A stretch of DNA of 41,929 nucleotides, from assembly GCA_036677365.1 (NCBI GenBank), contig JAVBWN010000002.1:1-41929 (forward strand), in the 5' to 3' direction. Made by a program: the position numbers and the translations under genes. The first letter of the stretch is position 1, and each line of letters begins with the position of its first letter. Origin of the DNA: Acholeplasma sp. GTDB taxonomy: Bacteria > Bacillota_I > Bacilli_A > Acholeplasmatales > UBA5453. The notes under the pieces were generated by a model. The model saw nothing but the letters and a program-made list of their open reading frames with translations, did no database searches and had not been told where the DNA came from. Positions 12,761 through 41,929 of the stretch are shown here, one piece after another.

Positions 12761-12770
12761 ATGAAAATAT

Positions 12771-12841: not shown

Positions 12842-13681
12842 ATGAAAGTTATTTGTAATCAAACCAGACTTCAAACAACCTATTTAAGTTGGCTTGTCAT
12901 CATCAATATCATTGTTTTAACCGCTGGGTGGGTCCATCAAGGTTGGCTTGGTTTTGGTTCCTCGATTTTGATCAACATGGGCATTAATTTGTTGATATTG
13001 AAATCATACCGAAATAAACTTAAAAAGAACCGAGACCACGTCAGCATCAACATGGGAGCGTTCAAACATACCAAACCCAAAAGTTATTATGAAATTCCAC
13101 TCGTGGATATTGAACATTTTTTTGTAAAACCACACCCAAAGAAAAAACGTACACAACGAATCATCCATGTGGTATTCAATCGAAACCATTCGTATGATTT
13201 TGTTATAGATCGCAGTCAATTGTTGAAACTAGAAACAGTGGTAAGAAGACCACTGAATTATTCACTGATGCCAAAGAAAACCACGCATGGGTTACCTAAA
13301 CAACGACGTTTCATTTGGTTTCAAGTGCTTGGGTCATTGATTGGTGTGGGTTTAACCGCTATTGGGATTCTACTATATAACCATACCAATAACATCACCC
13401 TCAATGGCATCATGGTAGGTTTAATCGTTATTTACGCGCTTATTCATTTTTCTTCGTTTTTAGATCAAGCCGACCCATGGCACGTTAAGCTGTCTCAAAG
13501 TATTATCGGTATGGTGATCTATGTTCTTATTGTTTTTTCAGTCATCACGGTGTTTTCAAACTTCATCTTAGAAAACCCATTTTCGATGGTTTATATGATG
13601 TATGCCATTTACGCACTGTCTTCATTTGTCGTGGTGGTTTTGATTCTCATGGCATCTCTTTATATCTTGTCTTACGCTTAG
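12842..13681 (+). CDS. Hypothetical integral membrane protein
   Basis: Two N-terminal TM segments, basic soluble region, ~4 C-terminal TM segments; RBS AAGGGG. Confidence 0.7.
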   Translation: MKVICNQTRLQTTYLSWLVIINIIVLTAGWVHQGWLGFGSSILINMGINLLILKSYRNKLKKNRDHVSINMGAFKHTKPKSYYEIPLVDIEHFFVKPHPKKKRTQRIIHVVFNRNHSYDFVIDRSQLLKLETVVRRPLNYSLMPKKTTHGLPKQRRFIWFQVLGSLIGVGLTAIGILLYNHTNNITLNGIMVGLIVIYALIHFSSFLDQADPWHVKLSQSIIGMVIYVLIVFSVITVFSNFILENPFSMVYMMYAIYALSSFVVVVLILMASLYILSYA

Positions 13682-13692
13682 GAGGTCATACC

Positions 13693-14439
13693 ATGCCGTA
13701 TCCAATACTGGAATTTGATGATCATGATGATGTGTTCATTCGCCCCCATTGTGATGTCAGCCATTTACCAAAAGTCGAGAATCTTGTCATCACCTTTTTT
13801 AAAGAAGTGGTGGACGAATTGCTTGAAAACAAAGCCATCGAAGTTTATATGAACTTAAAGGGTGAAAACAGCTATACTTTTTATAAGTTTATCGATGAAC
13901 CAACGCTTGTTTTTCATGGTGGTATTGGGGGGCCTTTGTGTGGTGGGATGATGGAAGAAGCCATCGCTATGGGTGTTAAACGCATCCTATTTTGTGGCGG
14001 CGGTGGTATTTTGAAACCCATGCCAGTGGGTCACTGTATCGTCATTCATAGTGCCATCCGTGATGAAGGTACAAGCTATCATTACGCCAAACCATCACGA
14101 GAAATCGCTGTGGATCCAGTGGTAGTAAAATCCATTGAAGCGGGTTTAAATCGCTTAGGTGTGCCACATGTCGTGGGTAAAACATGGACAACAGACGCCT
14201 TTTACCGAGAAACCAAAGACCGGGTTAAACGTAGACAAAATGAAGGTGCGATTCTAGTTGAAATGGAACAGGCATCATTGATCGCGATTGCGCAATTTAG
14301 AAAAGTCAAATACGGTGCGATTGTGTATGCTGGCGATGACCTCACCAGCGATGTCTGGGATTCCCGTTCGTGGCAATCCCGTCAAAGTGTACGAAGTCGT
14401 TTGGTACTCATTTGTAAAGAACTCGTGAGAGACCTCTAG
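13693..14439 (+). CDS. Nucleoside phosphorylase (PNP/UDP family)
   Basis: GIGGP, AIRDEGTSYHY, TWTTDAFYRET, VEMEQA. Confidence 0.9.
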   Translation: MPYPILEFDDHDDVFIRPHCDVSHLPKVENLVITFFKEVVDELLENKAIEVYMNLKGENSYTFYKFIDEPTLVFHGGIGGPLCGGMMEEAIAMGVKRILFCGGGGILKPMPVGHCIVIHSAIRDEGTSYHYAKPSREIAVDPVVVKSIEAGLNRLGVPHVVGKTWTTDAFYRETKDRVKRRQNEGAILVEMEQASLIAIAQFRKVKYGAIVYAGDDLTSDVWDSRSWQSRQSVRSRLVLICKELVRDL

Positions 14440-14491
14440 GCGAATGCTTTTGGATTTGTTATAATGAAGTGGGTCTTAAGGGGTGGAAACC

Positions 14492-15025
14492 ATGGCTGTA
14501 CAAGAAGTCCATAAATTTGAATTGTTCGATGCCTATGACATCGATGAGAATAAACTGAACATCGATATGGTGCGCGGTGAATCACACCCAGAAGGTCAAT
14601 ACCACATCGTGATTGAAATCATCACGATGAATGAACAAGGACAAATCCTTTTAACCAAGCGTCACCCAAAAAAAGTTTTTGGGAACTATTGGGAGATTAC
14701 GGGCGGGTCCGTCTTAAAGGGTGAAGATGTCTTATCAGGTGCAGTTCGTGAACTAGAAGAAGAAACAGGATTAAGAGCAGATAAGAATAATTTCATACCG
14801 ATTTTTAGAGAAGTATTTTATGACGGTATTTTCAAAGGATTCTTCCATCAGATAGATACGGCAAACCAACATTTCAAGATTCAAGATGAAGAAATCATCG
14901 ATTATCAATGGATTTCGAAGTGCGATTTCATTGAGTTTATTTGTAAAGACCATTTTGTGCCTCATTCGAAAAATCGTATTTTACGCGCATGGGCTGTTTT
15001 AGAACCACTCATCTTTTGTGAATAG
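14492..15025 (+). CDS. NUDIX hydrolase
   Basis: Nudix box GGSVLKGEDVLSGAVRELEEETGL; start ATG 14492 or GTG 14483. Confidence 0.9.
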   Translation: MAVQEVHKFELFDAYDIDENKLNIDMVRGESHPEGQYHIVIEIITMNEQGQILLTKRHPKKVFGNYWEITGGSVLKGEDVLSGAVRELEEETGLRADKNNFIPIFREVFYDGIFKGFFHQIDTANQHFKIQDEEIIDYQWISKCDFIEFICKDHFVPHSKNRILRAWAVLEPLIFCE

Positions 15026-15143
15026 CATTTGGCACACATAGTGTGCCATTTATTTTTTAAAGCGATTCTCACTAAAAAACACCGTATTTATTTGATTTAT
15101 AGGCGTTTTTATGACAAAATTATTATAAACAGGAGGTCATATT

Positions 15144-15818
15144 ATGCAAGAATTTATTCAAACAAACGGCATTTATATTCTCATCGGATTGGTATTGGTA
15201 TTCGTGGTCGTGACTTTTTTATTGTCACGTAAACCCGAAAAACAAGATAAACCGGTAGAAATTCAAAAACAAAGTGAACCCGTGGCACCTGCCCCAGTTG
15301 AAGAACAACCCGCCATCGCAGAAGCAGTGGTAGAAACACCAGTTATGGCTGTAAAACCAGAACCTGAAGTTAAGACAGAGCCTGTGGTTGAAACGAAACC
15401 TGAGCCTGTGGTTGAAGCTAAACCAGAACCTGTGGTTGAAACAAAACCAGAACCTGTCGTTGAAGCTAAACCAGAACCAAAACCGAAAGTCGCGAAACCA
15501 AAAGCAGAAGTCAAAAAAGAACCGGTAAAAGAAACACCAAAACCGGAAGATTTGGATGAAGATGCGGATGAAGAAGCCGCGCTCAAACGTGTGGTAAAAA
15601 ACCCTAAATACCACATTTCTATGAATAAGGACGAAACCAGTCCATATTTCAAGAAATGGCGTGTGCGTAAAGAAGGTTCAACCAAAACCATCAAGTATTT
15701 TGATACCCAAAAAGAAGCCATTGAATTCGCACAAGGTTTGGCAGAAAAAGCCAACACAAGCGTGGTTATTCATAAAGTAGATGGGTCGATTCGTAAACAA
15801 GATTATTCTAAAAAATAG
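15144..15818 (+). CDS. Membrane-anchored protein with Pro/Glu/Lys-rich linker and C-terminal DUF2188-like domain
   Basis: N-terminal TM; EPVVE[TA]KP repeats; W.VRKEGS....FDTQKEAIEFA..VVIHKVDG; RBS AGGAGG. Confidence 0.78.
   Translation: MQEFIQTNGIYILIGLVLVFVVVTFLLSRKPEKQDKPVEIQKQSEPVAPAPVEEQPAIAEAVVETPVMAVKPEPEVKTEPVVETKPEPVVEAKPEPVVETKPEPVVEAKPEPKPKVAKPKAEVKKEPVKETPKPEDLDEDADEEAALKRVVKNPKYHISMNKDETSPYFKKWRVRKEGSTKTIKYFDTQKEAIEFAQGLAEKANTSVVIHKVDGSIRKQDYSKK
15378..15473 (+). repeat. Coding tandem repeat, 4 x 24 bp (EPVVE[T/A]KP)
   Basis: GARCCTGTSGTTGAARCNAAACCW repeated four times in frame. Confidence 0.9.
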
Positions 15819-15868
15819 TAGCACAAAAAGCACGTAATGACGTGCTTTTTATCAATAAGGAGATAAAG

Positions 15869-16348
15869 ATGGAAACATTCATCGTATTTATAGTGTTGGG
15901 TTTATTCGTTGTTTTAACCGTATCCCTCAGCTTCATCCCATCCGATGGGTTTGGTGTGTTAGAACAAATGGGTAAAATCCATGAAATCTATAAAGAACCT
16001 GGCCTTCATTTCGTGATGCCTGGATTTCAAAAGATGTATTTGTATCAAAGGGAAACTACCCTCAATTTTGACCGTTTGTTACTCGCACCGGACAATGGAA
16101 TGTTATTTAAGGTCACTTTAACCATCAGTCTTGTGATTACCGACATTGAAGCTTACCATAAAGCCGTTAAACACATGTCACTTCACCACGATTTGCTCAA
16201 ACAAATGGAAAAATTCGTCGAAACTTGCGCGTGGTCTGCACAGTCCATCCGTGCAGATTTAAATGAGTATTTGGTAGAACTCTTCACCAAAAATACCTAC
16301 CCATTCGCCGTATCGAACATCGATGTGCACGAATTAGAACAAGCTTAA
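15869..16348 (+). CDS. SPFH/band-7-like membrane protein (short, divergent)
   Basis: N-terminal TM then GVLEQMGK...EPGLHFVMP; ATG 15869 after AAGGAG. Confidence 0.62.
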   Translation: METFIVFIVLGLFVVLTVSLSFIPSDGFGVLEQMGKIHEIYKEPGLHFVMPGFQKMYLYQRETTLNFDRLLLAPDNGMLFKVTLTISLVITDIEAYHKAVKHMSLHHDLLKQMEKFVETCAWSAQSIRADLNEYLVELFTKNTYPFAVSNIDVHELEQA

Positions 16349-16392
16349 CCAGTCCAATCGACTGGTTTTTCTTTTTTAAGCAAATCGCATGA

Positions 16393-16409
16393 TATTTCGA
16401 ATTCGAAAT
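16393..16409. promoter_or_regulatory. Palindromic operator (MarR/MhqR-like box)
   Basis: Perfect 16-bp palindrome ATTTCGAATTCGAAAT (16394-16409) ~25 bp upstream of the LLM gene. Confidence 0.55.
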
Positions 16410-16434
16410 GATATCATGTTTATGAGGTGATGTT

Positions 16435-17487
16435 ATGTCAAAATTCGAACTTGGAATCACAACATTCGCAGAAGTGATGCCAGATTTAAAAACAGGAAAA
16501 ACCATATCATACGACGAACGAATCAATCAACTCATCGATGAGATAGTGCTCGCTGACCAAGTTGGTTTGGATTATTATGGGATTGGTGAACACCACAGAA
16601 AAGACTTCGCCGCGTCTGCACCCCATACCATTTTGGCTGGGGCAGCGCGTTTAACGAAGCACATTAAATTGGGTTCTGCAGTTACCGTATTGTCCTCAGA
16701 AGACCCCGTGCGTGTCTATCAAAATTTCGCAACACTGAACGCGTTATCAAGAGGCAGAGCAGAAATCATGGCTGGTCGAGGTTCATTCATCGAATCCTTC
16801 CCATTGTTTGGTTATGATTTAAATCAATATGACCGTTTGTTTTCTGAAAAACTCGATTTACTCCTACAAATTAGAGACCATGAAATCGTCTCATTTGAAG
16901 GGAGCACTAGAGCCGAAATAGATCACTTAGGGGTTTACCCAAGAACCCAATACCCACTGCCAATTCAAGTGGCTGTTGGTGGGACACCAGCATCCGTCGT
17001 CCGTGCCGCGAACTACGGGCTACCGCTATTTCTTGCCATCATTGGTGGCTATCCAAGGATGTTTTCACCGCTGGTGGACTTGTATAGGAAAACTTACAAA
17101 GAACGTGGTTATGACCCAAAAGACATGCATATATCGGTCCATTCCCATGGGTATATCGCAGAATCTCATGAGGATGCGGTGGAAACGTATTTCCCATCGA
17201 TCAAACAGGCGATGGACATCATCGGTAAAGAACGTGGCTGGTCTACGTACACAAGACAAACCTATGATGCCAGTCGTTCTATAGAGGGGGCTTTATTTGT
17301 AGGTGACCCTGAGTATGTTGCGAAGAAGATACTTCATTTAAGAAAAACATTGGGGATCAACCGTTTCGCATTACACGTACCTGTGGGACAACTTGACCAT
17401 GATAAGGTAATGAAAACCATTGAATTATTAGGTACGAAAGTTAAACCCATCATTGAGGCGGCGATTGCTTTAGAAAATAAAGTATAA
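16435..17487 (+). CDS. LLM-class flavin-dependent oxidoreductase (luciferase-like monooxygenase)
   Basis: GIGEHHR, LGSAVTVLSSEDPVRV, GRAEIMAGRGSFIESFPLFG. Confidence 0.93.
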   Translation: MSKFELGITTFAEVMPDLKTGKTISYDERINQLIDEIVLADQVGLDYYGIGEHHRKDFAASAPHTILAGAARLTKHIKLGSAVTVLSSEDPVRVYQNFATLNALSRGRAEIMAGRGSFIESFPLFGYDLNQYDRLFSEKLDLLLQIRDHEIVSFEGSTRAEIDHLGVYPRTQYPLPIQVAVGGTPASVVRAANYGLPLFLAIIGGYPRMFSPLVDLYRKTYKERGYDPKDMHISVHSHGYIAESHEDAVETYFPSIKQAMDIIGKERGWSTYTRQTYDASRSIEGALFVGDPEYVAKKILHLRKTLGINRFALHVPVGQLDHDKVMKTIELLGTKVKPIIEAAIALENKV

Positions 17488-17529
17488 TTTAGTTGAAAAA
17501 TGACGTATAATGACTTTGAGGTGATGTTT

Positions 17530-18102
17530 ATGAAGTCTTATACGCAAATACCTGAGGGTTATACCTTGAGTTACGATTTACATCTATTGAAAAACAAACG
17601 TGTCTTTGTGTTATTGAATGTACTCTCATTTGTTTTGATCGTACCTTTACTACCCGGTGTTTTGTTTTTTGATTTTACAACACTTGAAATACCCCACTTG
17701 ATGGTATTCATTGTTATGATGGTACTGAGTGTGGTTATTCATGAGTTGATTCACGCGTTCTTTTTTCACCGATTTAGTGGAACGAAAGTGAAATTTCAGT
17801 TTCATGGCTGGGCTGCGAGCGCATCCACGCCAGGCATTTATTACAGAAAAAAATATTATCTCATCATCGGTTTAGCGCCAGCAGTCATCCTCAACCCTAT
17901 ATTGCTTCTTTTGGCGCTTTTATTACCAGCCCCCTATAATCTCGTTAGCTACTTAACACTCATGGTCCATTTCTCTGGTTGTGTTGGTGACTTCTATGTT
18001 ACGTGGATCATGCGAAAGTACCCTGAAGATATGTATGCAGAAGATACAGGCATTGGGATGCGTTTCTACGAAAAAACAAATACAGATATTGACTTTGACT
18101 AA
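17530..18102 (+). CDS. DUF3267-like membrane metalloprotease (putative zincin)
   Basis: HELIH motif at end of TM, LAP, GCVGDF; ATG 17530 after GAGGTG. Confidence 0.8.
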   Translation: MKSYTQIPEGYTLSYDLHLLKNKRVFVLLNVLSFVLIVPLLPGVLFFDFTTLEIPHLMVFIVMMVLSVVIHELIHAFFFHRFSGTKVKFQFHGWAASASTPGIYYRKKYYLIIGLAPAVILNPILLLLALLLPAPYNLVSYLTLMVHFSGCVGDFYVTWIMRKYPEDMYAEDTGIGMRFYEKTNTDIDFD

Positions 18103-30807: not shown

Positions 30808-31338
30808 ATGGAGACAATCAGACTGGTTGAGGGAATCCGTAGAAGGAGCGAGTCTGCGTTTAGAGAAGTTTATGACAATTACTTTAAGTTATTGAAACAC
30901 GTCGTGTATAAGATGGTGAAAAACCATCAAATTGCTGACGAGTTAGTTCAAGAAGCATTCATGAAGATGTATGAGCGTATTCATACGTACACAGTGGACA
31001 CCAACTTTAAGTTTTGGTTAGTTCAAATTGCGAAAAACACCGCTTTAGACTACCTCAGAAAAGAACAAAAACAACTCAACATCACGGTGAATGAAGATGC
31101 GGTCGAAAGCTACATCGATGATCATAAACCAGATGACTACGATCATCTCTATAAAAAGATAGAAAAGATCGTCAGCAAAGACGAATATGAAATCGTCATT
31201 TTAAGAATCTTCCATGGCCTCAAGTTTCATGAGATTGCAGCCATGTTAGAGATAACCACAGCAGTAGCCACAAATAAGTACTCAAGAGCAATTAAGAAGT
31301 TAAAGAAAGAACTTCGTGAGGAGGATTTACATGAGTAA
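30808..31338 (+). CDS. ECF-type RNA polymerase sigma-70 factor
   Basis: AFREVYDNY, ADELVQEAFMKMY, FKFWLVQIAKNTALDYLRK, LKFHEIA; RBS AGGGGG. Confidence 0.92.
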   Translation: METIRLVEGIRRRSESAFREVYDNYFKLLKHVVYKMVKNHQIADELVQEAFMKMYERIHTYTVDTNFKFWLVQIAKNTALDYLRKEQKQLNITVNEDAVESYIDDHKPDDYDHLYKKIEKIVSKDEYEIVILRIFHGLKFHEIAAMLEITTAVATNKYSRAIKKLKKELREEDLHE

Positions 31339-31924
31339 GAAAATTAAGACCCTAGTCCAAAAGTATGAAAAGGACATGCAATTTGAGAATCGATTTGATG
31401 AATTAAAACACAAACTCGATTTAATACCTGACGCTGAAATAAAAAGCGAAGTTTATACCATCAAGAAAAAAGTAATGCCTGCGTACGCAATGATGATTGT
31501 ATTGCTCATGTTAGTGACAGGCATCATTGGATTACAGTTTGGATTGAACTCAAGTTATATAGAGACTCCTGAAACAGTAGATTCAGTCGAATCTAGACTA
31601 ATGGAACTAACTGACATTTATGAAAGAGAAGCTGTCTCGACGATTTTACTAAGTGATTTTGCTAGAGTACATTTGTATGTAGGTCTTCTCAATAATGAAG
31701 AGGTAATTGTTGCTTATCTTACAATTATTCAACCAAACATAACTGCTAGCATAGATGTTGAGAATTCAACCTATACATTGTCTACTGCAAATCGATTTCA
31801 ATTGATCGTATTAAATGAAATGAATGCAGATTTAGACTTTAAAGTTATCTTCAACCAAACGATTATCCACTCTGAAAATAAACAAATAGATTTTACTGCA
31901 TACTTTGATTTATTAGGTCAATAA
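31331..31924 (+). CDS. Putative anti-sigma factor (single TM, extracytoplasmic domain)
   Basis: Overlaps ECF stop, RBS GAGGAGG, one TM; function inferred from position. Confidence 0.6.
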   Translation: MSKKIKTLVQKYEKDMQFENRFDELKHKLDLIPDAEIKSEVYTIKKKVMPAYAMMIVLLMLVTGIIGLQFGLNSSYIETPETVDSVESRLMELTDIYEREAVSTILLSDFARVHLYVGLLNNEEVIVAYLTIIQPNITASIDVENSTYTLSTANRFQLIVLNEMNADLDFKVIFNQTIIHSENKQIDFTAYFDLLGQ

Positions 31925-31927
31925 CGT

Positions 31928-32410
31928 ATGAAAAAATACTATACACTCTCGATTTTCATTCTCTTCTTAGTTCTTTCCGGATGTACTTCCAAACGAGAAT
32001 CTCAAAAGGTTTTATATAAGTTTGACAAAGAAACATCCTTTTCAAATGTAGAACTACTAGATCAACTAGACGATTATAAAGATGGCTTGGTAATATCAAT
32101 CACTTTAGAATCAGAATATGTTGCTGATGAATATAAAACAAAGATTTTACCAGGCATGACTGCTGAACAAATCGATGCCATCATCAAAGAAATGCGCGAA
32201 GTAACCAAAAACTACTTCATAGAATTAAACAACCAATTCATCGAAACACACAAATTATCGGAACTTGGTGTGGTGGAGTTTTCAAAATACGATCCAACCA
32301 TCACCATTTATTTGGGAAAAGATGAATTGACATTAGAACAAATTGACAAATTGATTTTAATCTCGAAAGTAGATGAAGTTTTATTTGTAGAAGTTAAGCG
32401 TTACATTTAG
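31928..32410 (+). CDS. Lipoprotein resembling the propeptide of the downstream subtilase
   Basis: Lipobox LSGC; by-eye alignment to residues ~68-167 of 32425..34119. Confidence 0.65.
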   Translation: MKKYYTLSIFILFLVLSGCTSKRESQKVLYKFDKETSFSNVELLDQLDDYKDGLVISITLESEYVADEYKTKILPGMTAEQIDAIIKEMREVTKNYFIELNNQFIETHKLSELGVVEFSKYDPTITIYLGKDELTLEQIDKLILISKVDEVLFVEVKRYI

Positions 32411-32424
32411 GGGGAGTTATTCAC

Positions 32425-34119
32425 ATGAAAAAATTATTACTTACTACCATAATTGTTCTCGGGATGGCTTTCTCGTTAATGGTTAATGTTTCAAAACCTG
32501 TGGTTGTGCTTGGATCAACAACACAAGCAGAACCTAAGGACAAAATTGTGTTTGAAGGATTTAATATCAATCAATCTGCATCTATGGACGAAATCCAAGA
32601 AGAAGTAAGCGAAGCAGCAAATGAAGTAGTCACAGTTCAAGTTCAATTTGATTATGAGTATTTTTCTGATGCTAGATATAGAATTAACCGAAGAACAAAC
32701 ATCAACACATTCATCGCTGAACAAAGAAAATTAATTAAAGACTACCATACCAAGATGAATGCATATTTGATTCAAGATCTTGAACTCAATAATTATGTGG
32801 ATTCTTATGTGTCAAGTTATGGTCCATTTGTTGAGTATTATTATGAAAAGGATACATTCATTAACAACTCAGAAGAAATTGTTGGGGAACTTATTGAAAA
32901 TGAAAATGTATCGATGGCTTACATCCAAAATACAGAAGAATATACCTCATCAAACTTAAATACAGCAATGTATACCATGGGATCATATGAAGCCATTACA
33001 ACCGGTCAAGTTAGTGGTGCTGGTGTTACCATTGGTATCCTTGAAATTGAAGGTATTGTAGAAAGAAAACATCCAAATCTCATTGGTTCTAATTTAACAG
33101 TTCGTGATGAATGGTGGTTTAATGAAACAATTTCATCACACGCTACAATGGTAGCTTCTGTTGCTGGTGGTAATTTTGGTATTGCGAAAGGGGCAAGAAT
33201 TCTTAGTGTTCAATTGGTAGGCTCTGCCAAAGAAGAAATGGAATGGATGCTAGATCGTGGTGTCAATATCATTAACCTCAGCTGGGGTGATTCCTATAGT
33301 AATGCAACAGGCGTCTATTCAAGCCAATCTGCTTACTATGATTACATTGTGAGAACCACTTTTGTGACAATTGTTGCTGCTGCAGGAAACTGGGGCGACG
33401 GACATGGTATGGTTGGAAATCCAGGTTTAGGGTATAACGTTATCACCGTAGGTGCAACTAACCCAACAGGGACATATCGTCAAAGCTACTCATCCTATAA
33501 TGTTATTAATGGTCCATCCAAACCTAATATTGTAGCACCTGCTGGATTTATGATGCCAAATTATTCATTTCCATTTACAGGAACCAGCGTAACATCTCCA
33601 TTGGTAGCAGGTACAATCGCGTTAATGATGGAAACCTATCCTGAACTCAAAGTATTTCCTGAAAAAGTTATGTCATTGATTTCAGCTTCTGCCAAATTCA
33701 TGTCATTCCACGGGACAACTGGAATTGAAGGTTATAATGCAGAAGTTGGTGCAGGACTATTTGATTATAAAGAATCCATGGAAAATATGACCAATACTTT
33801 TGGTTATATCAATAGCACAGGTAAATCTGGTGTCTTTAAAGAAGTATATTTCTATGTGGATTACATGCAACAAGTGAAAGCATCAGTTGCATGGTTACTC
33901 AACAGTAACGATACAACCACAGTTAAACTCACAGACTATGATTTAAGATTATTCGATCCAACCGGTAGACCTGTCGCATCCGCAACCTCTAATCATAACA
34001 ATATTGAAGTTGTCACATACACAGCACACATGCCTGGTTATTATAGATTACAAATCACCCAAAATGGCGCGTTAGCAAACGGTTCTGACTGGGTATCCTT
34101 ATCCTACAGTATTCGATAA
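32425..34119 (+). CDS. Secreted S8 (subtilisin-like) serine peptidase with C-terminal beta-sandwich (PPC-like) domain
   Basis: Signal peptide; G.GVTIGILE, HATMVA, INLSWG, AAAGN, NVITVGA, KPNIVAP, GTSVTSPLVAG; DYDLRLFDP..NNIEVV. Confidence 0.9.
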   Translation: MKKLLLTTIIVLGMAFSLMVNVSKPVVVLGSTTQAEPKDKIVFEGFNINQSASMDEIQEEVSEAANEVVTVQVQFDYEYFSDARYRINRRTNINTFIAEQRKLIKDYHTKMNAYLIQDLELNNYVDSYVSSYGPFVEYYYEKDTFINNSEEIVGELIENENVSMAYIQNTEEYTSSNLNTAMYTMGSYEAITTGQVSGAGVTIGILEIEGIVERKHPNLIGSNLTVRDEWWFNETISSHATMVASVAGGNFGIAKGARILSVQLVGSAKEEMEWMLDRGVNIINLSWGDSYSNATGVYSSQSAYYDYIVRTTFVTIVAAAGNWGDGHGMVGNPGLGYNVITVGATNPTGTYRQSYSSYNVINGPSKPNIVAPAGFMMPNYSFPFTGTSVTSPLVAGTIALMMETYPELKVFPEKVMSLISASAKFMSFHGTTGIEGYNAEVGAGLFDYKESMENMTNTFGYINSTGKSGVFKEVYFYVDYMQQVKASVAWLLNSNDTTTVKLTDYDLRLFDPTGRPVASATSNHNNIEVVTYTAHMPGYYRLQITQNGALANGSDWVSLSYSIR

Positions 34120-34150
34120 AAAGCATTTTAAACGAAAGGGGGCGACCATC

Positions 34151-35140
34151 ATGATGAAAGTATTAGTGGCTGAAAGTAATAAGAAACATCGCGATTTACT
34201 CGTTCAGTACTTACAAGAAGAACAAATCCACGTCTTAACAGCAGCCGATGGCCAAAAAGCCCTCGAAGTATGGTCCAATGAAGACCCAAAAATCATCATC
34301 ATGGACATCAATATGCCAGACATCGATGGTTTCAGCGTCATTGAAGAAATCCGTCGTCGTGAACTTGATCATACGTATATCATCGTCGCTACCGACAATG
34401 AAGAAGTCATTTTAGGTAGAAGTTTCGATGTGGGTGCAGACGATTTCATCTCCATGCCAATCCGTAAAACAGAACTCATCTATCGCATTAAAGCGAGTGA
34501 AAAGGTGATTTCCAATCAAGAAAATCAAACTGTGATTTACGCTTTGGCACAACTCACAGAAACCCGTGATATCGAAACCGGTAGACACCTTGAACGTATT
34601 GGGATGTATGCCAAAGTAATCGCGACAGAACTTAAAAACCACCCGATTTATGGTGAACAAGTAACCTCACAATTTATTCATCACCTAACCTTATCCTCTG
34701 TCTTACATGATATTGGTAAGGTGGGCATTGAAGATGCAGTCTTACGTAAAAAAGGGATTTATACCGAAGAAGAGCGTAAGAAGATGCAGACCCACACCAT
34801 CATTGGTGCATCCACCATTGACAAAGTGGCGGACAAATACCCATTCATGGGGTTCTTAAAGATGGCTTCTGAAATTGCCCGATACCACCATGAAAAATGG
34901 GACGGTTCGGGTTACCCTGAAGGGTTAAAAGGCAAAGATATACCGTTATCCGCGAGAATCGTGGCTTTAGCCGATGTCTTTGATGCTTTGATTTCTGAAC
35001 GCTATTACAAACCAAAATACAGTTTCCAAGAATCTAAGCGCATCATTCTAGAATCTTCAGGATCCCATTTTGACCCCATCATCGTCGAAGCATTTTTAAA
35101 ACATGAGGCTGAATTTTACGCAATTGCACACCTCGATTAA
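34151..35140 (+). CDS. Response regulator with HD-GYP cyclic-dinucleotide phosphodiesterase domain
   Basis: REC (MDINMPDIDG, GADDF); ETRD.ETG.H, LHDIGK, HHEKWDGSGYPEGL, ADVFDAL. Confidence 0.93.
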   Translation: MMKVLVAESNKKHRDLLVQYLQEEQIHVLTAADGQKALEVWSNEDPKIIIMDINMPDIDGFSVIEEIRRRELDHTYIIVATDNEEVILGRSFDVGADDFISMPIRKTELIYRIKASEKVISNQENQTVIYALAQLTETRDIETGRHLERIGMYAKVIATELKNHPIYGEQVTSQFIHHLTLSSVLHDIGKVGIEDAVLRKKGIYTEEERKKMQTHTIIGASTIDKVADKYPFMGFLKMASEIARYHHEKWDGSGYPEGLKGKDIPLSARIVALADVFDALISERYYKPKYSFQESKRIILESSGSHFDPIIVEAFLKHEAEFYAIAHLD

Positions 35141-35262
35141 TACCGAAAATCACATTCAAAACGCCTACCCATGGCGTTTTTAATATATTAGGCGTGTCTT
35201 TTATTAAAAAACCGTTATAATAGAGATAGAATATCTTTCATAATTCTTTTATTTTAGGGGGT

Positions 35263-37263
35263 ATGCATATGGCTTACCGAGAGATTTTAAATATATTGGT
35301 CAATCTTTTGAACAATGGACTCATTTTATTGGGTTTGGTGTTTTTATATGCAGCAACCAATTTCGACCCACAAACCAACACACTTAGAAAAAAGATCACC
35401 GCTGGTATAACGATTGGGATATCTTCGATTTTCATCATGGCGAACCCATGGAAATTAGACACTGGTCTCATATTTGATACAAGATCGGTATTGTTTGGGG
35501 TTAACGGGTTTTTCTTTGGTGGCATTCCCACGGTAATCGCAGCTGTGATTGGTTCCGCTTATCGTATATGGGTAGGTGGTGCGGGTGTATATGCTGGGGT
35601 TGCAACCATCTTATCCACCTCTGCCCTTGGCTATTTATGGAAGAAGTATCGTAAACCAGAGTGGTTTAACAATAATGCTTACTTTGAATTTTATGCTTTA
35701 GGCGTTGTACTCCATATCGCCACTCTGCTTGGATTCTTCTTAATTCCGAACGGCCTCAATATCATCATCAACTTACTAATTCCTTATTTAGGCTTATTCC
35801 CAATACTTGTGATGCTGATTGGTGTGGTCATCTTAAATCAACAATCCAGATTACATTTTAACCAAGAATTTAGAATTCAAACCAAGCTTTTACAAGCCTC
35901 CATGGACGCGACTAGACACATGGAAATCTATGCTTTGGACCGCAATTTTAAATATCTAACATTCAATCATTTCCACCAAGTGTCGATGAAAGCCTATTAT
36001 AACTTAGAGATTCATAAAGGGGAGGATTTCTTATCCATCATCGAAAATGACGCGATGAAACGTCGTTTGATGAGAAACATTCAAAAAGCCTTGGATGGGG
36101 TATCTCATATCGATGTGGTCCGTGTCGAGATCGATGGGGAAAAATACCTAGAAGAACATTACGCCCCCATCATTGAAGATGGTAATATTATTGGCGCAAC
36201 CATTTTCTCATATGAAATCACAGACCGTAAAAAATACGAAGCCTCCATTTTATACCTATCTTATAACGATGCTTTGACTGGTTTATACAATAGGCGCTTT
36301 TATTCCGAAAAGTTAGCAGAACTCAAAGACACCAAATACAACCCTGTATCGATCATCTTGTGTGACATCAATGGGTTGAAAATCATGAACGATGCTTTCG
36401 GTCACGCCGCAGGGGATGAACTCTTGATTGAAGTCTCTGCCCTATTAAAACAAATTTTCAATGATAAAGGTTCCGTATGTCGTATCGGTGGCGATGAGTT
36501 TGTTGTATTGTTACCAAACACACCACTGCATTCCGCCCAATATTACTTAGAAAAGATGAAACGCATCTTAGATAAGAAATATTTACATGGCATGAGCGTA
36601 TCGGTATCCTTCGGGGTATCGTGCCGTGATCAAGATGGCGACTTAGAAGAAGTCATCCGCGTCGTAGAAGAACAAATGTATAAGAACAAATTGTTCGAAG
36701 TGACTTCACATCGAAGTGAATCGATCAAAACCATCTTAAATACGTTACATGAGAAAAACCCAAGAGAAGAAAGACACTCCAAACGGGTCTCTGAGATTTG
36801 TATCAACATTGGTCGAAAATTAGGCATGAAGTCTGAAGATTTACAGTTGTTAAGAGCGATTTCCAATCTCCATGACATCGGTAAAATTGCGATCGATGAA
36901 GCCATCTTAAATAAACCAGGTAAACTCACTGAAGCCGAATGGGAAATCATCAAACGTCACCCTGAAATCGGTTATCGAATCATTTCGACCTCACCAGAAT
37001 ACGCAGAAATTGCGTATGCCATCTTGTCACACCATGAGAAGTGGGATGGCACGGGGTATCCACGTGGGATTGAAGGCGAAAACATCCCGATTCGTGCGAG
37101 AATCATCTCCATCGCCGATGCCTATGACGCGATGGTTTCAGAAAGACCATATCGAAAACCACTGTCACACGAAGAAGCGATCGCTGAAATCAAAAAACAC
37201 ACAGGTAAGCAATTTGACCCTAGCTTGGTTGAAGTCTTCTTATCACTTTACGAAACAGGATAA
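35263..37263 (+). CDS. Membrane (5TM-LYT-like) sensor with PAS-like, GGDEF and HD-GYP domains
   Basis: IFDTR..GFFFGG TM domain; DALTGLYNRR, DINGLK..NDAFGH..GD, RIGGDEF; LHDIGK, HHEKWDGTGYP, ADAYDAM. Confidence 0.92.
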   Translation: MHMAYREILNILVNLLNNGLILLGLVFLYAATNFDPQTNTLRKKITAGITIGISSIFIMANPWKLDTGLIFDTRSVLFGVNGFFFGGIPTVIAAVIGSAYRIWVGGAGVYAGVATILSTSALGYLWKKYRKPEWFNNNAYFEFYALGVVLHIATLLGFFLIPNGLNIIINLLIPYLGLFPILVMLIGVVILNQQSRLHFNQEFRIQTKLLQASMDATRHMEIYALDRNFKYLTFNHFHQVSMKAYYNLEIHKGEDFLSIIENDAMKRRLMRNIQKALDGVSHIDVVRVEIDGEKYLEEHYAPIIEDGNIIGATIFSYEITDRKKYEASILYLSYNDALTGLYNRRFYSEKLAELKDTKYNPVSIILCDINGLKIMNDAFGHAAGDELLIEVSALLKQIFNDKGSVCRIGGDEFVVLLPNTPLHSAQYYLEKMKRILDKKYLHGMSVSVSFGVSCRDQDGDLEEVIRVVEEQMYKNKLFEVTSHRSESIKTILNTLHEKNPREERHSKRVSEICINIGRKLGMKSEDLQLLRAISNLHDIGKIAIDEAILNKPGKLTEAEWEIIKRHPEIGYRIISTSPEYAEIAYAILSHHEKWDGTGYPRGIEGENIPIRARIISIADAYDAMVSERPYRKPLSHEEAIAEIKKHTGKQFDPSLVEVFLSLYETG

Positions 37264-37265: not shown

Positions 37266-37302
37266 AAAATGCAATGCTGAGTTTCATCAGCACTGCATTT
37301 TT
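37266..37302. terminator. Bidirectional terminator
   Basis: AAAATGCAATGCTGA-gtttca-TCAGCACTGCATTTT between convergent genes. Confidence 0.78.
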
Positions 37303-38909
37303 TAATTGAGGTCGATTATCTTGGTGGGTTTAATATCCTTTAAATCACGGTGTGATACAAAGATGATGGTTTTTTGTTTCAATGCTTTTAAGTTCATCAA
37401 CACTTTTTTCTCGGTGTCAGCATCGAGTGAAGCGGTGATTTCATCTAACAACAAGATAGGTGCCTCTTTTAATAATGCTCTGGCTATGGATAACCGTTCA
37501 AGCTGTCCAATCGATAAGCCCGCACCCATTTCTTTCAGCTTGGTGTCAAACCCAGCAGGTGTTTTTAAGATATCTTCATAGATCACCGCGGTTTGACACG
37601 CTTCGATGACTTTTTCCATGGGGATGTCTTTTCTTAGTGTCAGATTTTCTAAGATAGAATCGGATAATAGGTAATAGGATTGTGGGACATAAGAGAAGTA
37701 GGGTCTCGTGGATTCGGATAATTCATACGAAGCGTCATCGACCTTGAGTTCTAATGTGCCAGCACTTGGTTTCATCAAACCCAACAATAGTTTAATGAGG
37801 GTGGTTTTGCCTTTGCCAGATTCACCTTTAATCCAAATGAGTTCACCGGGTTTTATATCAAGTGATACGTTATCCAATACCAAACGTTGTTCGTATTTAA
37901 ATGAGACTTTCTTAAGTTCAATCTTCTTGAATGGTCTCACAGGCAATTTGGTTTTGGATTCTCTTGGTAAATCATCGATCATTTTGATACGGTCGAGAGA
38001 AGCGGTCCATTGGTGGTACTTAATGACTAAAGTGGATAACCCAGAAAATGGACTTTGGATGTTTTGAACGAGTTGGATAATCGCGATTAAACTACCAAAC
38101 ACAATCGAACCTTGACTCAAACGATAAGTTCCAAACAATATCGCGAATACATAACCAAACGCGAAGAAACTATGTAAACCCAACCCAGTCAAAGAAGAGA
38201 TGAGTTGTTTTTTCATGCGTTTTAGGTAGAAGTGATGACCTGAGGTTTGAAGCGATTCTTTTTGAATGTCTTCCGCTTCAAACGCTTTAATCACTTCTAA
38301 ATGGGTTAAACCTTCTTGCATCTGTTGGTAGAGTTGATCCTCAGCACTTAAAGCTTCTTTTTGAATGCCTTTAATCTTTTTGGATAATAGCCTTGATAAG
38401 ACAAATAATAATAGTCCAAGGGTTAAGAACAATACCGCGAATAACCAATCTAAAATGAATAGAACAACAAACGCACCTAAAAATCTAAAGATATAAAAAA
38501 TGACTTTCGGCAGTAAATCGTATACCCCATCTGTGATCGCTGTAACATCCGATTTGAAGTGGTTGATGTAGACGGCAGAGTGGTTTTCACCGGTACTTTG
38601 AAGTTTACCAGTTAGAATTTTTTGGTATAAATCTTCACGCATCTGTCCTTCTAATTGATAGGTAACAGACGATTTATAATATTGGTTATATGCGGATAAC
38701 AGCACTTGTATGACCATGATAATTACCAGTAAAGTGCCATATAAAAATAACAATGACCCATCGGTATAAGCGTCAATGGCGAGTTTGGATAAGTAAGCAA
38801 ATACAATCGCAGTGAGTGATAGTATGAGTGAAAACACCGATAACAAGGTTAGCGGTGGGACGATCCGTTTTTGATAAGGTTTTAATAAAGGGGTCATTTT
38901 CAATTTCAT
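37302..38909 (-). CDS. ABC exporter, fused permease/ATPase
   Basis: ~6 TM segments; GESGKGKTT, YVPQ, LSIGQ signature, LLLDEIT, VSHR; no C39 peptidase domain. Confidence 0.92.
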   Translation of the reverse strand: MKLKMTPLLKPYQKRIVPPLTLLSVFSLILSLTAIVFAYLSKLAIDAYTDGSLLFLYGTLLVIIMVIQVLLSAYNQYYKSSVTYQLEGQMREDLYQKILTGKLQSTGENHSAVYINHFKSDVTAITDGVYDLLPKVIFYIFRFLGAFVVLFILDWLFAVLFLTLGLLLFVLSRLLSKKIKGIQKEALSAEDQLYQQMQEGLTHLEVIKAFEAEDIQKESLQTSGHHFYLKRMKKQLISSLTGLGLHSFFAFGYVFAILFGTYRLSQGSIVFGSLIAIIQLVQNIQSPFSGLSTLVIKYHQWTASLDRIKMIDDLPRESKTKLPVRPFKKIELKKVSFKYEQRLVLDNVSLDIKPGELIWIKGESGKGKTTLIKLLLGLMKPSAGTLELKVDDASYELSESTRPYFSYVPQSYYLLSDSILENLTLRKDIPMEKVIEACQTAVIYEDILKTPAGFDTKLKEMGAGLSIGQLERLSIARALLKEAPILLLDEITASLDADTEKKVLMNLKALKQKTIIFVSHRDLKDIKPTKIIDLN

Positions 38910-39008
38910 AAGGGTTCCTCTATTGGTATTGTATCATGGAACAACCACAGTTGACACTGTATTTCATTTATAAAACAAGGTATAATGGGGATAAGTGTGA
39001 GGTCAAGT

Positions 39009-40100
39009 ATGCAGACATATTTAATCGCTGGTATCCCCATTTCAATTGAATACCATTTTGATGATTACTTCAAAAACAACATCGAAGTCTATCAAAAAAA
39101 AGTCTTACCAAAATACCACATCGAGACACTTTTGGTCGATCATATCGAAGCCAAAACAGAGCCTTACATGCAAGACACCTACCGCAGATTTTATCAAGAT
39201 AAAGATAGACACACCCTTCAAGTGGTCGATTTAAATGGGTCAGTCAAATATGAAATCAAACGCAGTTTAGATTATCAAGAGGTTACCATTTCGATGGTTG
39301 AAAAACTGTCTAAGAAACCTGCTGAAATGGAATATATCTTCATCTCAATGTTGTTTTTAGATATCGCCACCATCGAAGGTTTTATCCCATTACATGCCTC
39401 GTGTGTGATTAAGCATAATGAAGCCTATATGTTTTCTGCCCCCTCAGGTACAGGTAAATCTACCCATGCGCGTTTTTACCAAGATGTTTTAGAAGGCGAA
39501 ATCTTAAATGATGATAAACCCATCATCAAAGACATGAAAGTCTATGGTACACCTTTTTCTGGTAAAACAGCCCTCAATCAAAATGCCATATACCCACTGA
39601 AAGCCATATACTTCATTGAACAAGGCAGTGTGGATACAATCAAACCATTGACGGTCGATGAGGCTTCAAAACTATTATTAAAAAACATCGCTAGACCAAC
39701 GACCAAAGAAACCTGGGAAACCTTACTGCCTGCCATCAATCATTTACTCAATCAGACCAAGTTTTATCGAACCACTTTAACCTTAAACAAGCACAGTGTA
39801 TACATGACTTATTTTGAACCCAATAAGGAGACACCTATGAAAATCAAACCTGGATTCATCATTAAAACCATTGGTATTCGCTACATGGTATTACCTATAG
39901 ACGCTCAAGCACTCCATTTCAATGGGGTGATGACGTTAAACAAATCGGGTAAACGCTTATTTGAATCCTTGGAACAAGAACAAACCTTAGAATCCTTGGT
40001 TCAACTTCTAATGGACCACTATGAAGTGTCTTATGAGGATGCTAAAAAAGACGTCATCACCTTCATAGAAACCTTGAAAGCCAAAGACTTACTATGTTAA
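39009..40100 (+). CDS. HPr-kinase-like P-loop kinase fused to a C-terminal PqqD/RiPP recognition element
   Basis: LHASCV...FSAPSGTGKSTHA, LNDDKP, YGTPFSG; last 87 aa LNKSG..LFE.L.....L...L...YEV....A..DV..FI..L PqqD pattern; ATG 39009 after GAGGT. Confidence 0.85.
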   Translation: MQTYLIAGIPISIEYHFDDYFKNNIEVYQKKVLPKYHIETLLVDHIEAKTEPYMQDTYRRFYQDKDRHTLQVVDLNGSVKYEIKRSLDYQEVTISMVEKLSKKPAEMEYIFISMLFLDIATIEGFIPLHASCVIKHNEAYMFSAPSGTGKSTHARFYQDVLEGEILNDDKPIIKDMKVYGTPFSGKTALNQNAIYPLKAIYFIEQGSVDTIKPLTVDEASKLLLKNIARPTTKETWETLLPAINHLLNQTKFYRTTLTLNKHSVYMTYFEPNKETPMKIKPGFIIKTIGIRYMVLPIDAQALHFNGVMTLNKSGKRLFESLEQEQTLESLVQLLMDHYEVSYEDAKKDVITFIETLKAKDLLC

Positions 40101-40519
40101 AAACCATCATCGATAACGACATATTTTTTGAAGTCGTCAAAGCTGAACTGGGTTCTAAAAAGCGTGTCAGTTTTACGGTCAAAGGCACATCGATGTGGCC
40201 ATTCTACAAAGATGGCCAAACGATTGTTTATGTGGATTTGCCAGAAAAACTCAAAAAATACGATGTCGTCTTGGCCAATTATCAAGGCAAAGTCATTCTC
40301 CACCGAATCATTAAAATCCATCAGGATACCTATACATTAAGAGGTGACGCCACTTACCGAAAAGAAGTGGTGGATGTTCAAGACATATTTGCGAAAGTCA
40401 CCATACACCAAAACAAAAAGAAAGTATCTATTTACTCTAAAACATATCGTCTATTAGTTATTCTTTGGGTCAATAACCCATTTAGAACATTATTACTTCG
40501 CTTGAGGTCGCTTAAATGA
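40094..40519 (+). CDS. S24/S26-family serine peptidase (no N-terminal TM)
   Basis: VKGTSMWPF (catalytic Ser), YDVVL, ILHRII, LRGD. Confidence 0.85.
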   Translation: MLKTIIDNDIFFEVVKAELGSKKRVSFTVKGTSMWPFYKDGQTIVYVDLPEKLKKYDVVLANYQGKVILHRIIKIHQDTYTLRGDATYRKEVVDVQDIFAKVTIHQNKKKVSIYSKTYRLLVILWVNNPFRTLLLRLRSLK

Positions 40520-41682
40520 TTGAAACCACCTTATTCAAAGCGACATCTCTCGCTTTGAAACAACAACAGATCGATTTAAAAATCGAGGATGAAGCCTCGT
40601 TTTTTAAAATGATGTTGAATGGGGGTTTATCCGGTTTAATCATTCCGTATTTAGATCCTAAAGCCTATTCATCCAAGTTTATTCACAAGTGTAATGGGGT
40701 TTTATATTCATTCATTGATAAAGACCAAAAACAAATGGTTTTAATCGCCCAGATTAAAACACTATTCCAAAAAGAACACATCGATCACATCTTTTTAAAG
40801 GGTACAAAGCTTAAAACATTATACCCTGAGTCTTATATGCGTGGGATGGGCGATATTGACATTTTGGTCCGTTCAGATTTGGATGTCATAAAAAACCTAT
40901 TCAAAAAGATGGGTATTGAACTCGAGTCTAGAACACTACAGCACGACCAATACATCACACCCGAGGGTTTGTTGATAGAGATACACCCAAGTATTCATAA
41001 AGACTTCAATCCAAAATACCAAACCTATTTTAAAACGGCTTGGAACCATACAAAATTAGTTGAAAATTATGAATACACATTACTACCTACATTTGAAGTC
41101 ATCTATTTGGTTTACCATTTGGCTAAACACGTGGAATCCTCAGGGATTGGACTTAGAAGCTTACTTGATATCGCGATATACGTAGATAAAAATGTCGATT
41201 CGATTGATCAAAAAGCTTTAAATGAAACCTTAGAATCACTTCAAATGACGAAGTTCTTTCAAACGATTTTATATTTAAACCACACCTATTTTGAGGTAGA
41301 AGTACCCTTACTGGATTCAAGTTTTACTATGAGTGAACCCCTCGTACAACAGGTGACGGATTATTTTCTCATCTCTGGTATTCACGGTAAAGGTGAATCA
41401 TTCAATAGCATGGCACCAAGACTCGCAGCCTCAGAAAATAAAGGGAAATCACGATTCAAAGTACTCCTTCGAATCGCATTTCCCAAATTGGTAGATGCGA
41501 GAGGGATGTACCCTATACTCAATAAACATGCCTATCTTTATCCTTTTATGATGATTCATCGGATGATTAAACTTATTTTCTTTAAACGTAAGTCTTCACT
41601 GAAAAAAATCAGAAACCTAAATGAAAGCAATTCGAAACGAACTGAAATAGAACAACTCTTCAATGACATCGGTATTTACTGA
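40516..41682 (+). CDS. Nucleotidyltransferase family protein (NTP_transf_5-like)
   Basis: FLKG..L..LYP...RGMGDIDILV, IEIH, HLAKH...GIGLR.LLD. Confidence 0.88.
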   Translation: MIETTLFKATSLALKQQQIDLKIEDEASFFKMMLNGGLSGLIIPYLDPKAYSSKFIHKCNGVLYSFIDKDQKQMVLIAQIKTLFQKEHIDHIFLKGTKLKTLYPESYMRGMGDIDILVRSDLDVIKNLFKKMGIELESRTLQHDQYITPEGLLIEIHPSIHKDFNPKYQTYFKTAWNHTKLVENYEYTLLPTFEVIYLVYHLAKHVESSGIGLRSLLDIAIYVDKNVDSIDQKALNETLESLQMTKFFQTILYLNHTYFEVEVPLLDSSFTMSEPLVQQVTDYFLISGIHGKGESFNSMAPRLAASENKGKSRFKVLLRIAFPKLVDARGMYPILNKHAYLYPFMMIHRMIKLIFFKRKSSLKKIRNLNESNSKRTEIEQLFNDIGIY

Positions 41683-41725
41683 TGTCTTTTTTACGTAAAA
41701 ATTACTTAAAAATGACTATTTTGAA

Positions 41726-41754
41726 TTGCTTAGTATATATACTAGTGCTATAAT
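41726..41754 (+). promoter_or_regulatory. SigA promoter for precursor peptide gene
   Basis: TTGCTT, 17 bp spacer, TATAAT with TG extension; spacer holds palindrome TAGTATATATACTA. Confidence 0.72.
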
Positions 41755-41788
41755 GAATTCAAATGCAAATACTGTGGGAGGTATTTTA

Positions 41789-41917
41789 ATGTTTGAAAAA
41801 GAAGTGTACGAAGCGCCGTCTATCGAAATCACTGAGTTTGAATTAACCGATTCAATCGCGTTAAGCACTCAAGGTGGATTCGGTACGGGTGGCGTAGAAG
41901 AGATTTGGGGGAGCTAA
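41789..41917 (+). CDS. Putative RiPP precursor peptide, 42 aa (MFEKEVYEAPSIEITEFELTDSIALSTQGGFGTGGVEEIWGS)
   Basis: Strong RBS GGGAGGT 6 nt before ATG; YxxPxI RRE-type leader motif; Gly-rich C-terminus; adjacent to PqqD/kinase/peptidase/NTase genes. Confidence 0.78.
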   Translation: MFEKEVYEAPSIEITEFELTDSIALSTQGGFGTGGVEEIWGS

Positions 41918-41920
41918 TTA

Positions 41921-41929
41921 ATGAAAAAA
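41921..41929 (+). CDS. Start of next gene (MKK..., truncated by window edge)
   Basis: ATGAAAAAA preceded by GGGGAG inside the end of the precursor gene. Confidence 0.45.

Follow-up and report, generated by a model that had tools for sequence, protein, structure and literature searches.

Gene content of the locus

The DNA analysed here is a 41,929-nucleotide (nt) stretch from an Acholeplasma sp. (GenBank assembly GCA_036677365.1, contig JAVBWN010000002.1, positions 1 to 41,929), referred to below as the window; it is the entire contig C2 of a 37-contig, 1.97-Mb genome rated 99.86% complete. Its right-hand end carries a putative cluster for a peptide made by ribosomes and modified after its translation (RiPP), composed of an ATP-binding cassette (ABC) exporter, a kinase fused to a PqqD-type RiPP recognition element (RRE), an S24/S26 peptidase, a PF14907 nucleotidyltransferase and a 42-amino-acid (aa) peptide with a YxxPxI motif. 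Judged from its genes, the cluster is, with a probability of about 0.78, a divergent Acholeplasmatales variant of the pathway to linear polyphosphorylated peptides (LPPs) described from Bacillales.

All five genes are open under translation table 11 and together span 37302–41917 (Table 1). An initial annotation of the window had listed the same genes at the same coordinates, had described the peptide gene as separately promoted and had assigned the DNA to a probable wall-less mollicute. The gene content was recovered in full, the terminator-like hairpin and the TGnTATAAT-like element upstream of the peptide gene fit a promoter of its own, and the nearest named homologues, from Paracholeplasma manati, P. 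vituli and Acholeplasma, fit the proposed host. The kinase–RRE, peptidase and nucleotidyltransferase genes overlap by 7 and 4 nt. The exporter gene is divergent from the kinase gene, in related loci too, and promoter-like matches in the region between them were not above shuffle expectation. The contig ends 12 nt past the peptide gene.

Table 1. Features of the cluster at the right-hand end of the window
Feature	Position	Strand	Basis
ABC exporter (LppD-like, MsbA-type half transporter, 535 aa)	37302..38909	-	PF00664 and PF00005
Divergent intergenic region between exporter and kinase–RRE genes	38910..39008	.	Open reading frame (ORF) coordinates
P-loop kinase domain (LppK-like)	39009..39836	+	Walker A, AlphaFold model, Foldseek; ORF also open from 38985
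PqqD/RRE domain (LppB-like), fused to the kinase	39837..40100	+	PF05402, alignment, profile matches
SipW/archaeal-type S24/S26 peptidase (LppS-like leader peptidase, 141 aa)	40094..40519	+	PF00717, TIGR02228
PF14907 nucleotidyltransferase (LppN/PsmN-like)	40516..41682	+	PF14907 at 4.4e-42
Terminator-like hairpin with a T-run behind it, closing the nucleotidyltransferase gene	41665..41686	+	Hairpin scan
Extended −10 element (TGnTATAAT-like), upstream of the peptide gene	41746..41754	+	Read by eye; not listed by the consensus scan
Precursor peptide (LppA-like, 42 aa)	41789..41917	+	ORF behind ribosome-binding site GGGAGG
Next gene, first three codons (MKK), cut by the contig end	41921..41929	+	ORF start; domain-X gene in the closest relative

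The same functions as in LPP clusters

LPPs are encoded by lppA-K-B-S-D-N clusters of Bacillales, with Paenibacillus alginolyticus DSM5050 as the prototype (Popov et al., Nat Commun 2026, PMC13381572; here and below as far as the accessible part of the article extends). Their parts are a SipW-like peptidase LppS (S29/H68/D93), a discrete RRE LppB, an HprK-like kinase LppK, a nucleoside triphosphate transferase LppN and an MsbA-like exporter LppD, and the precursor follows the motif YxxPxVLxHQxIxFETxxS. In Bacillus subtilis, LppK transferred one to four phosphates onto core Ser3, and LppS cut after T-1, for which LppB was required. LppA has a Tyr at −16, a core starting A-Q-S and the phospho-Ser at +3 (PMC13381572). 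The initial annotation had suggested a linear peptide that is phosphorylated and loses its leader to an S26-like enzyme, and this is what the accessible text reports for the same gene set in Paenibacillus. The annotation's remark that it knew of no characterised product for the gene set is superseded, since the family has been named and its primary modification demonstrated (PMC13381572).

Popov et al. was the sole match in the literature to "linear polyphosphorylated peptide", and among the papers listed for Acholeplasma together with RiPP no title or abstract bore on the subject. The text of PMC13381572 does not mention Acholeplasma, Mollicutes, Mycoplasmatota or Tenericutes. Acholeplasma, Paracholeplasma and Mollicutes are likewise absent from three of its supplementary tables, a comparison that left out the PDF supplements and one large table.

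The precursor peptide, MFEKEVYEAPSIEITEFELTDSIALSTQGGFGTGGVEEIWGS, has a leader with Y7-x-x-P10-x-I12, followed by I23-A24-x-S26 and a core ending in G-x-E-E-I-W-G-x. As the initial annotation had anticipated, short YxxP peptides recur near homologous clusters, and 25 non-identical members were aligned. Y7 and P10 are invariant in all 25, and Y-x-x-P-x-[ILV] is invariant in the family, while E13, E16, I23, A24, S26 and W40 are conserved in at least 90% of the aligned peptides. The cores are short, ~16–20 aa, with a conserved end G-x-x-G-x-E-E-I-W-G. A near-invariant A-x-S lies at about the distance seen in LPPs, and the H-Q and F-E-T positions of the LPP consensus are replaced by E-[IV]-[VT]-E-F-E...D/E-S/A-I. 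In one relative, G031 (loci L039, L041 and L044), one peptide has a Ser replacing the Pro of Y-x-x-P.

By analogy with LppA, S26 is most likely the phospho-acceptor serine, because it is conserved in 24/25 peptides, stands in an A-x-S context like the A-Q-S of LppA and follows Y7 by 19 residues, compared with 18 in LppA. On the same analogy the leader would probably be cut between S22 and A24. Two other cleavage sites were considered. A cut after A-x-S, following the −3/−1 rule of signal peptidases, was dropped on conservation (position 22 is Ser in 16/25, Ala in 8/25 and Thr in 1/25, whereas position 26 is Ser in 24/25) and on the spacing, which matches LppA. A cut after F-E-L, modelled on F-E-T, was dropped on the same grounds for one 2–3 residues before S26.

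The kinase–RRE fusion and its partner enzymes

Alignment with 15 homologues favours ATG 39009 as the start of the kinase–RRE gene, the start that the initial annotation had also used. The first ~275 residues form the kinase part, with a Walker-A motif, and the last ~87 the RRE. Residues H137, S139, G157, K158, T160 and N175–K178 (numbered from 38985) are invariant in 16 kinase homologues. The AlphaFold model (predicted local distance difference test score, pLDDT, 91.4) has a two-domain PEPCK-like fold with a P-loop. HPr kinase shares this fold; in a Foldseek search, ATP-PEPCK came out on top (2.2e-7, TMq ~0.5) and HPr kinase (1knx) at rank 48 (1.9e-3). The best NCBIfam match of the domain is ScmC (TIGR04249; 7.5e-9, residues 114–233), at 35 bits against a cut-off of 125 bits. 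Two kinase homologues occur in other settings: one at L027 (8738–9688, G012:C18) adjoins the gene for ribosomal protein L28 and has neither RRE nor peptidase nearby, and at L024 (8518–15706, G044) the kinase and RRE genes lie 6 kb apart with nuclease genes in between.

The RRE matches PqqD (PF05402) at 5.5e-13 (49.5 bits, residues 301–370). A profile built from 12 RREs of the lineage also matched lasso and LPP RRE structures in the PDB (9x90 PbaB1, 9.1e-6; 6jx3 TfuB1, 1.3e-5; 5v1u TbiB1, 2.5e-4; 9x8z LppB, 0.02), bearing out the initial assignment of the last 87 residues to an RRE. Single-sequence PDB searches with the RRE and with the peptide gave nothing significant. The RRE is fused to the kinase in this genus and is a discrete protein in other genera of the order; in an alignment of seven discrete and four fused RREs, the fused part opens with the Met that starts the discrete genes.

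The peptidase matches PF00717 at 3.4e-6, above the cut-off, and within NCBIfam it comes nearest to the archaeal-type signal peptidase I (TIGR02228; 4.6e-7, below its cut-off). Residues S33, H70 and D85 are invariant in 13 homologues. The enzyme has no N-terminal membrane anchor, and its gene overlaps the one encoding the RRE. The nucleotidyltransferase is found in most related loci. The exporter combines PF00664 (4.4e-28) with PF00005 (5.5e-26), matches MsbA (TIGR02203) at 1.9e-67, below the cut-off, and showed no C39 peptidase domain.

Several observations weigh against assigning the cluster to the LPP pathway. The sequences are far from the characterised Lpp system, with LppB (9x8z) reached only at E = 0.02, and the RRE profile matches the lasso RREs PbaB1 and TfuB1 better than LppB. 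None of the 16 kinase homologues matches the HPr kinase family PF07475 at E ≤ 0.1, and hhalign of the kinase with the genome's own HPr kinase aligned the P-loop alone, at a probability of 17%. The initial label "HPr-kinase-like" is therefore less secure than it was put. The leader lacks the H-Q...F-E-T of the LPP consensus, so that both the proposed cut and the proposed acceptor serine are extrapolated, and LppN itself had no visible effect in the heterologous B. subtilis system (PMC13381572). On the supporting side, the peptide gene is covered without differences by RNA-library contigs from three runs of three studies, one of them 4,097 nt long and running past the window end; such contigs prove neither transcript ends nor levels, the higher depth over the peptide gene is no basis for ranking genes, and nothing follows from the gaps over the enzyme genes. 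The contigs of the three runs start at 41772, 41781 and 41794, upstream of or at the peptide start, two of them with adapter-like loose ends, and so hint weakly at a 5′ end of a transcript there.

Absence of lasso enzymes

In lasso clusters of the paeninodin and pseudomycoidin type, a Y/W-x-x-P leader, a PqqD RRE, a P-loop kinase acting on a Ser of the linear precursor and an ABC exporter occur together, and in pseudomycoidin the attachment of a hexose to the phosphate has been tied to a PF14907-type enzyme (PMC8498205, accessible part). The kinase, RRE and PF14907 enzyme of the window would thus be at home in an ordinary phosphorylated lasso cluster whose cyclase and B2 protease lie past the contig end, a mere 12 nt beyond the peptide. 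The peptide itself permits such a reading, with T27-Q28 closing the leader, a core from G29, E37 at core position 9 and a C-terminal S42. The chance that this is so is very slight. The initial annotation had seen no cyclase and no B2 protease in the window, and their absence extends to the whole genome, which has 0 matches to PF00733 (Asn_synthase) and 0 to PF13471 (Transglut_core3, the B2 protease); as search controls, the two models gave matches in 11 and 2, respectively, of 14 reference genomes. Neither model matched among 79 neighbour proteins picked from 12 related loci, and the lack of a radical SAM enzyme, also remarked on initially, held among the same proteins. Complete related loci run straight from the peptide into the gene of a secreted protein, described below, and neither lasso enzyme occurs in them. 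T27, G29, E37 and S42 are not conserved in the 25-member family, and the peptide of the closest relative ends W-E-G. The protease role is filled by the S26-type peptidase, as in the cyclase-free LPP clusters (PMC13381572). A ring from G29 to E37 with a C-terminal phospho-Ser was therefore rejected.

Pairing of the peptide with a secreted protein

The next gene downstream of the peptide in relatives specifies a 450–1,200-aa protein with a signal peptide and a conserved N-terminal part of ~350 aa, here named domain X. Behind domain X come variable modules of the LTD, aBig_2 or Listeria-Bacteroides repeat type, and the protein of the closest relative is secreted, at least 900 aa long and has immunoglobulin-like (Ig-like) repeats. 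A domain-X query found matches in 19/61 related genomes, 18 of which also have the kinase. Of 34 matches listed, 32 were examined (the other two, in G020, are without loci): a peptide-family ORF lies on the same strand at 27 of these 32 genes and upstream in 26, at 0–465 nt from the start of the aligned domain-X part. A domain-X ORF (1e-79 to 1e-102) also comes directly after the peptide at 4/4 further loci, of which two belong to other families of the class.

The pairing is seen gene by gene. On one contig (locus L033, on G014:C6, ~12677–18048), three tandem pairs of peptide and domain-X genes follow a single enzyme set. In G031, peptide/domain-X pairs (L039, L041 and L044) lie hundreds of kb from the only complete kinase–RRE–peptidase module of that genome. 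In-frame read-through from the peptide into domain X was rejected as an explanation; the two share a frame in the window and in L035, and are in different frames in L001, L023 and L028.

The domain-X proteins have a hydrophobic segment at the N-terminus only, without a C-terminal membrane anchor, and the N-termini inspected carry no lipobox cysteine. Domain X was modelled as tandem β-sandwiches (pLDDT 85.9). Foldseek against the PDB gave no match at E ≤ 1e-3 and returned generic Ig/FN3 strings only. A weak Flg_new_2 match in Pfam and InlB-B-repeat-like clusters in Atlas are to be taken as leads only.

In the window, the gene that follows the peptide is cut after three codons (Table 1). The last 15–127 nt of the contig overlap no other contig, and tblastn of the genome with the relative's downstream protein found only repeat regions elsewhere. 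For the nuclease and GGDEF genes of the relatives, the top homologues in this genome sit in the interior of other contigs. The partner gene is missing from the assembly, probably owing to its repeats. An RNA-library contig of run X17 continues for 255 nt beyond 41917, and its first 30 letters agree at 28/30 with the start of the domain-X gene of L001.

A predicted complex of peptide and domain X

A complex was modelled from the peptide, with its 25-sequence alignment, and domain X residues 25–356, with a 20-sequence alignment. It scored 0.84 (0.84, 0.86 and 0.83 in three runs), whereas all three controls scored 0.00; the mark applied to this score was reached by 58/80 solved complexes and by 2/110 mismatched pairs. 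The runs share at least 49% of contacts. Peptide residues 25 and 29–40 alone make contacts in the model, and the leader makes none. The 36-residue interface on domain X holds five of its eight invariant columns, D120, K148, Y181, N207 and E327 (hypergeometric P = 5e-4). The model is support for, and not proof of, binding of the core peptide to domain X through the conserved C-terminus.

Other results count against such docking. No peptide ORF was detected at 5/32 examined domain-X genes, and 12/30 genomes with the kinase module, the present one included, have no domain X by this query. The present assembly has no domain X, and none at contig ends. The calibration of the complex score holds only roughly, as our own alignments were used, the partner pLDDT in the model is low (51–53), and the method may favour conserved patches. 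With both sides taken together, docking of the exported core onto domain X through its C-terminal motif is tentatively proposed, at somewhat less than an even chance.

Distribution and genomic surroundings

The kinase–RRE query matches 30/61 genomes of the order, often as split genes and at several loci per genome, and the peptidase (S24) profile matches 124/400 sampled genomes of the class. The gene order kinase, RRE, peptidase, nucleotidyltransferase, peptide recurs in other families.

Upstream of the exporter, the window (30808–37263) encodes an extracytoplasmic function sigma factor, two unknown proteins, an S8 subtilase, an HD-GYP response regulator and a 5TMR-LYT/GGDEF/HD-GYP sensor protein. 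In the closest relatives (L001, L028 and L035), the subtilase and the two cyclic di-GMP genes stand at the same position. At the other end of the contig, positions 1–77 of the window match the opening 77 nt of contig C30 exactly, which is probably an assembly-graph branch at a repeat.

Genes for Endonuclease_1 (PF04231) surface nucleases group with the kinase–RRE–peptidase module and occur in 9/12 annotated related loci (L023, L024, L026, L028, L029, L031, L032, L034 and L036); in four relatives, 1/4, 3/4, 1/3 and 2/4 of these genes lie within 10 kb of the module. The present genome has four of them, on contigs C22, C19 and C12, and none on the window contig. A recurrent protein of ~340 aa is encoded after the nuclease gene (L023, 2727–3728; L028, 15233–16291; L029, 14661–15698). 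It matches CBM_X2 weakly, and one copy also has a lipoprotein-signal match.

Proposed pathway and alternatives

By analogy with the LPP enzymes, the precursor would be held at Y7-x-x-P10-x-I12 by the kinase-fused PqqD/RRE domain, so that the P-loop kinase could phosphorylate a serine just past the leader, most likely S26 and possibly several times. The SipW-type peptidase (S33/H70/D85) would then strip the leader with the help of the RRE, with the cut probably falling between S22 and A24. Further decoration of the phosphate may be the task of the PF14907 nucleotidyltransferase, and the product would leave through the MsbA-like ABC transporter. Outside the cell, the G-x-x-G-x-E-E-I-W-G end of the core could dock on the N-terminal Ig-like domain X of the secreted protein encoded downstream.

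What such docking might serve is more doubtful. Since domain-X proteins have a signal peptide and lack both a lipobox and a C-terminal anchor, and since the cell is without a wall, the modified peptide could be an adaptor or tether that holds them at the cell surface, an idea we regard as speculative. In its fuller form, which we likewise hold to be rather unlikely, the matured phospho-(glyco)peptide would be no free natural product but a dedicated adaptor for an adhesin-like secreted protein, with its E-E-I-W-G strand in the invariant groove of domain X and its modified phosphoserine end linked to the membrane or glycocalyx, possibly by way of the PF14907 enzyme. The pairing of peptide and domain-X genes suggests something close to the "peptide carrier for surface modification" that the initial annotation had raised among other options.

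An LPP-type peptide might instead act alone, as a free secreted signal, antimicrobial or biofilm factor, with the neighbouring domain-X gene reflecting co-regulation within a surface-protein operon and not binding. The surroundings of these loci are generally rich in surface-protein and nuclease genes, and the 12 kinase-module genomes without domain X and the low partner pLDDT fit a free peptide as well. Against a free peptide, RiPP cores usually vary, whereas the C-terminus of this core is conserved. The pairing follows duplications, as the three tandem pairs on the G014 contig show, and it is kept far from the enzymes in G031 and across four families. The complex model, at 0.84 against 0.00 for the controls and with invariant residues at the interface, argues in the same direction. 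The published LPP clusters, on the other side, lie within capsule loci, with no protein partner reported in the accessible text (PMC13381572). On balance a peptide acting by itself is unlikely, though by no means far-fetched.

A further possibility turns the roles around: the enzymes would act on large secreted proteins, by phosphorylation, nucleotidylation or signal-peptide processing of the SipW/TasA kind, and the small peptide would be a regulator or decoy. Genes for surface proteins and Endonuclease_1 consistently accompany the module, and a SipW-type peptidase stands beside secreted proteins with A-x-A-type signal peptides. We consider this quite improbable. All 25 aligned small peptides keep the Y-x-x-P motif for the RRE, the ABC exporter fits the export of a peptide matured in the cytoplasm, and the peptidase lacks an N-terminal membrane anchor; the LPP enzyme, for its part, works on an RRE-bound peptide (PMC13381572).

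The LPP-type pathway is thus the preferred reading of the enzymes, and domain X the candidate partner of their product. The final product and biological role of LPPs are stated to be unknown by the authors who described them (PMC13381572, accessible part). Were the adaptor idea true, it would give LPP-type RiPPs a first biological role and amount to ribosomal-peptide-based surface anchoring in wall-less bacteria, and it could explain the capsule-locus setting of the Bacillales clusters. The present lineage is a simpler one in which to approach LPP function, with small genomes, no interfering lasso cluster and short cores with a conserved end. The one-to-one genetic pairing with an anchorless secreted protein makes the role addressable by binding and localisation, and cultured relatives with homologues exist in Paracholeplasma manati and P. 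vituli.

Comparison with known systems

The paeninodin and pseudomycoidin clusters resemble the present one in a leader motif bound by an RRE, a P-loop kinase, a PF14907 enzyme and an ABC exporter, as far as their published description was accessible. They differ in having the cyclase and the B2 cysteine protease, which the present genome lacks. The acceptor Ser of paeninodin-type lasso peptides is C-terminal, whereas here the likely acceptor is near the leader–core junction and the C-terminal residue is unconserved. The SynChlorMet cassette provides, in ScmC, the top NCBIfam match of the kinase domain; the score is far below the cut-off, however, and the locus has no radical SAM/SPASM partners.

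In SipW-TasA operons, a dedicated archaeal-type signal peptidase is encoded beside its secreted substrates. Here too a homologue of such a peptidase adjoins genes for secreted surface or matrix proteins, but the enzyme, which has no membrane anchor, goes together with an RRE, a kinase and a Y-x-x-P peptide, and its expected substrate is the peptide and not the secreted proteins.

With the LPP clusters, within the accessible part of their description (PMC13381572), the cluster shares all six functions (A, K, B, S, D and N) and the lack of a macrolactam synthetase. A small residue-x-Ser stands just past the leader in both, at a Tyr distance of 19 here and 18 there, and the peptidases have a comparable Ser/His/Asp triad (S33/H70/D85 here, S29/H68/D93 in LppS). 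The differences are considerable. The RRE is discrete there and fused to the kinase here, a difference of architecture only; LppK is HprK-like, whereas the kinase here has no PF07475 match; and by profile match the RRE stands no nearer to LppB than to the B1 proteins of lasso clusters. The leader is without H-Q...F-E-T, and the cores are short with an E-E-I-W-G end, in contrast to the "highly variable C termini" of the Bacillales LPPs. Around the present cluster lie genes for Ig-like surface proteins and Endonuclease_1, where the LPP clusters have capsule genes; the peptide gene has a secreted-protein gene as its partner, and the hosts are Acholeplasmatales and neighbouring families instead of Bacillales. 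New with respect to the LPP paper are the kinase–RRE fusion, the short core with G-x-E-E-I-W-G and the pairing with a secreted Ig-like protein. On the LPP reading, the cluster would extend the family beyond the Bacillales sampled so far, with a kinase diverged past the Pfam HPr-kinase model, a point of relevance to genome mining.

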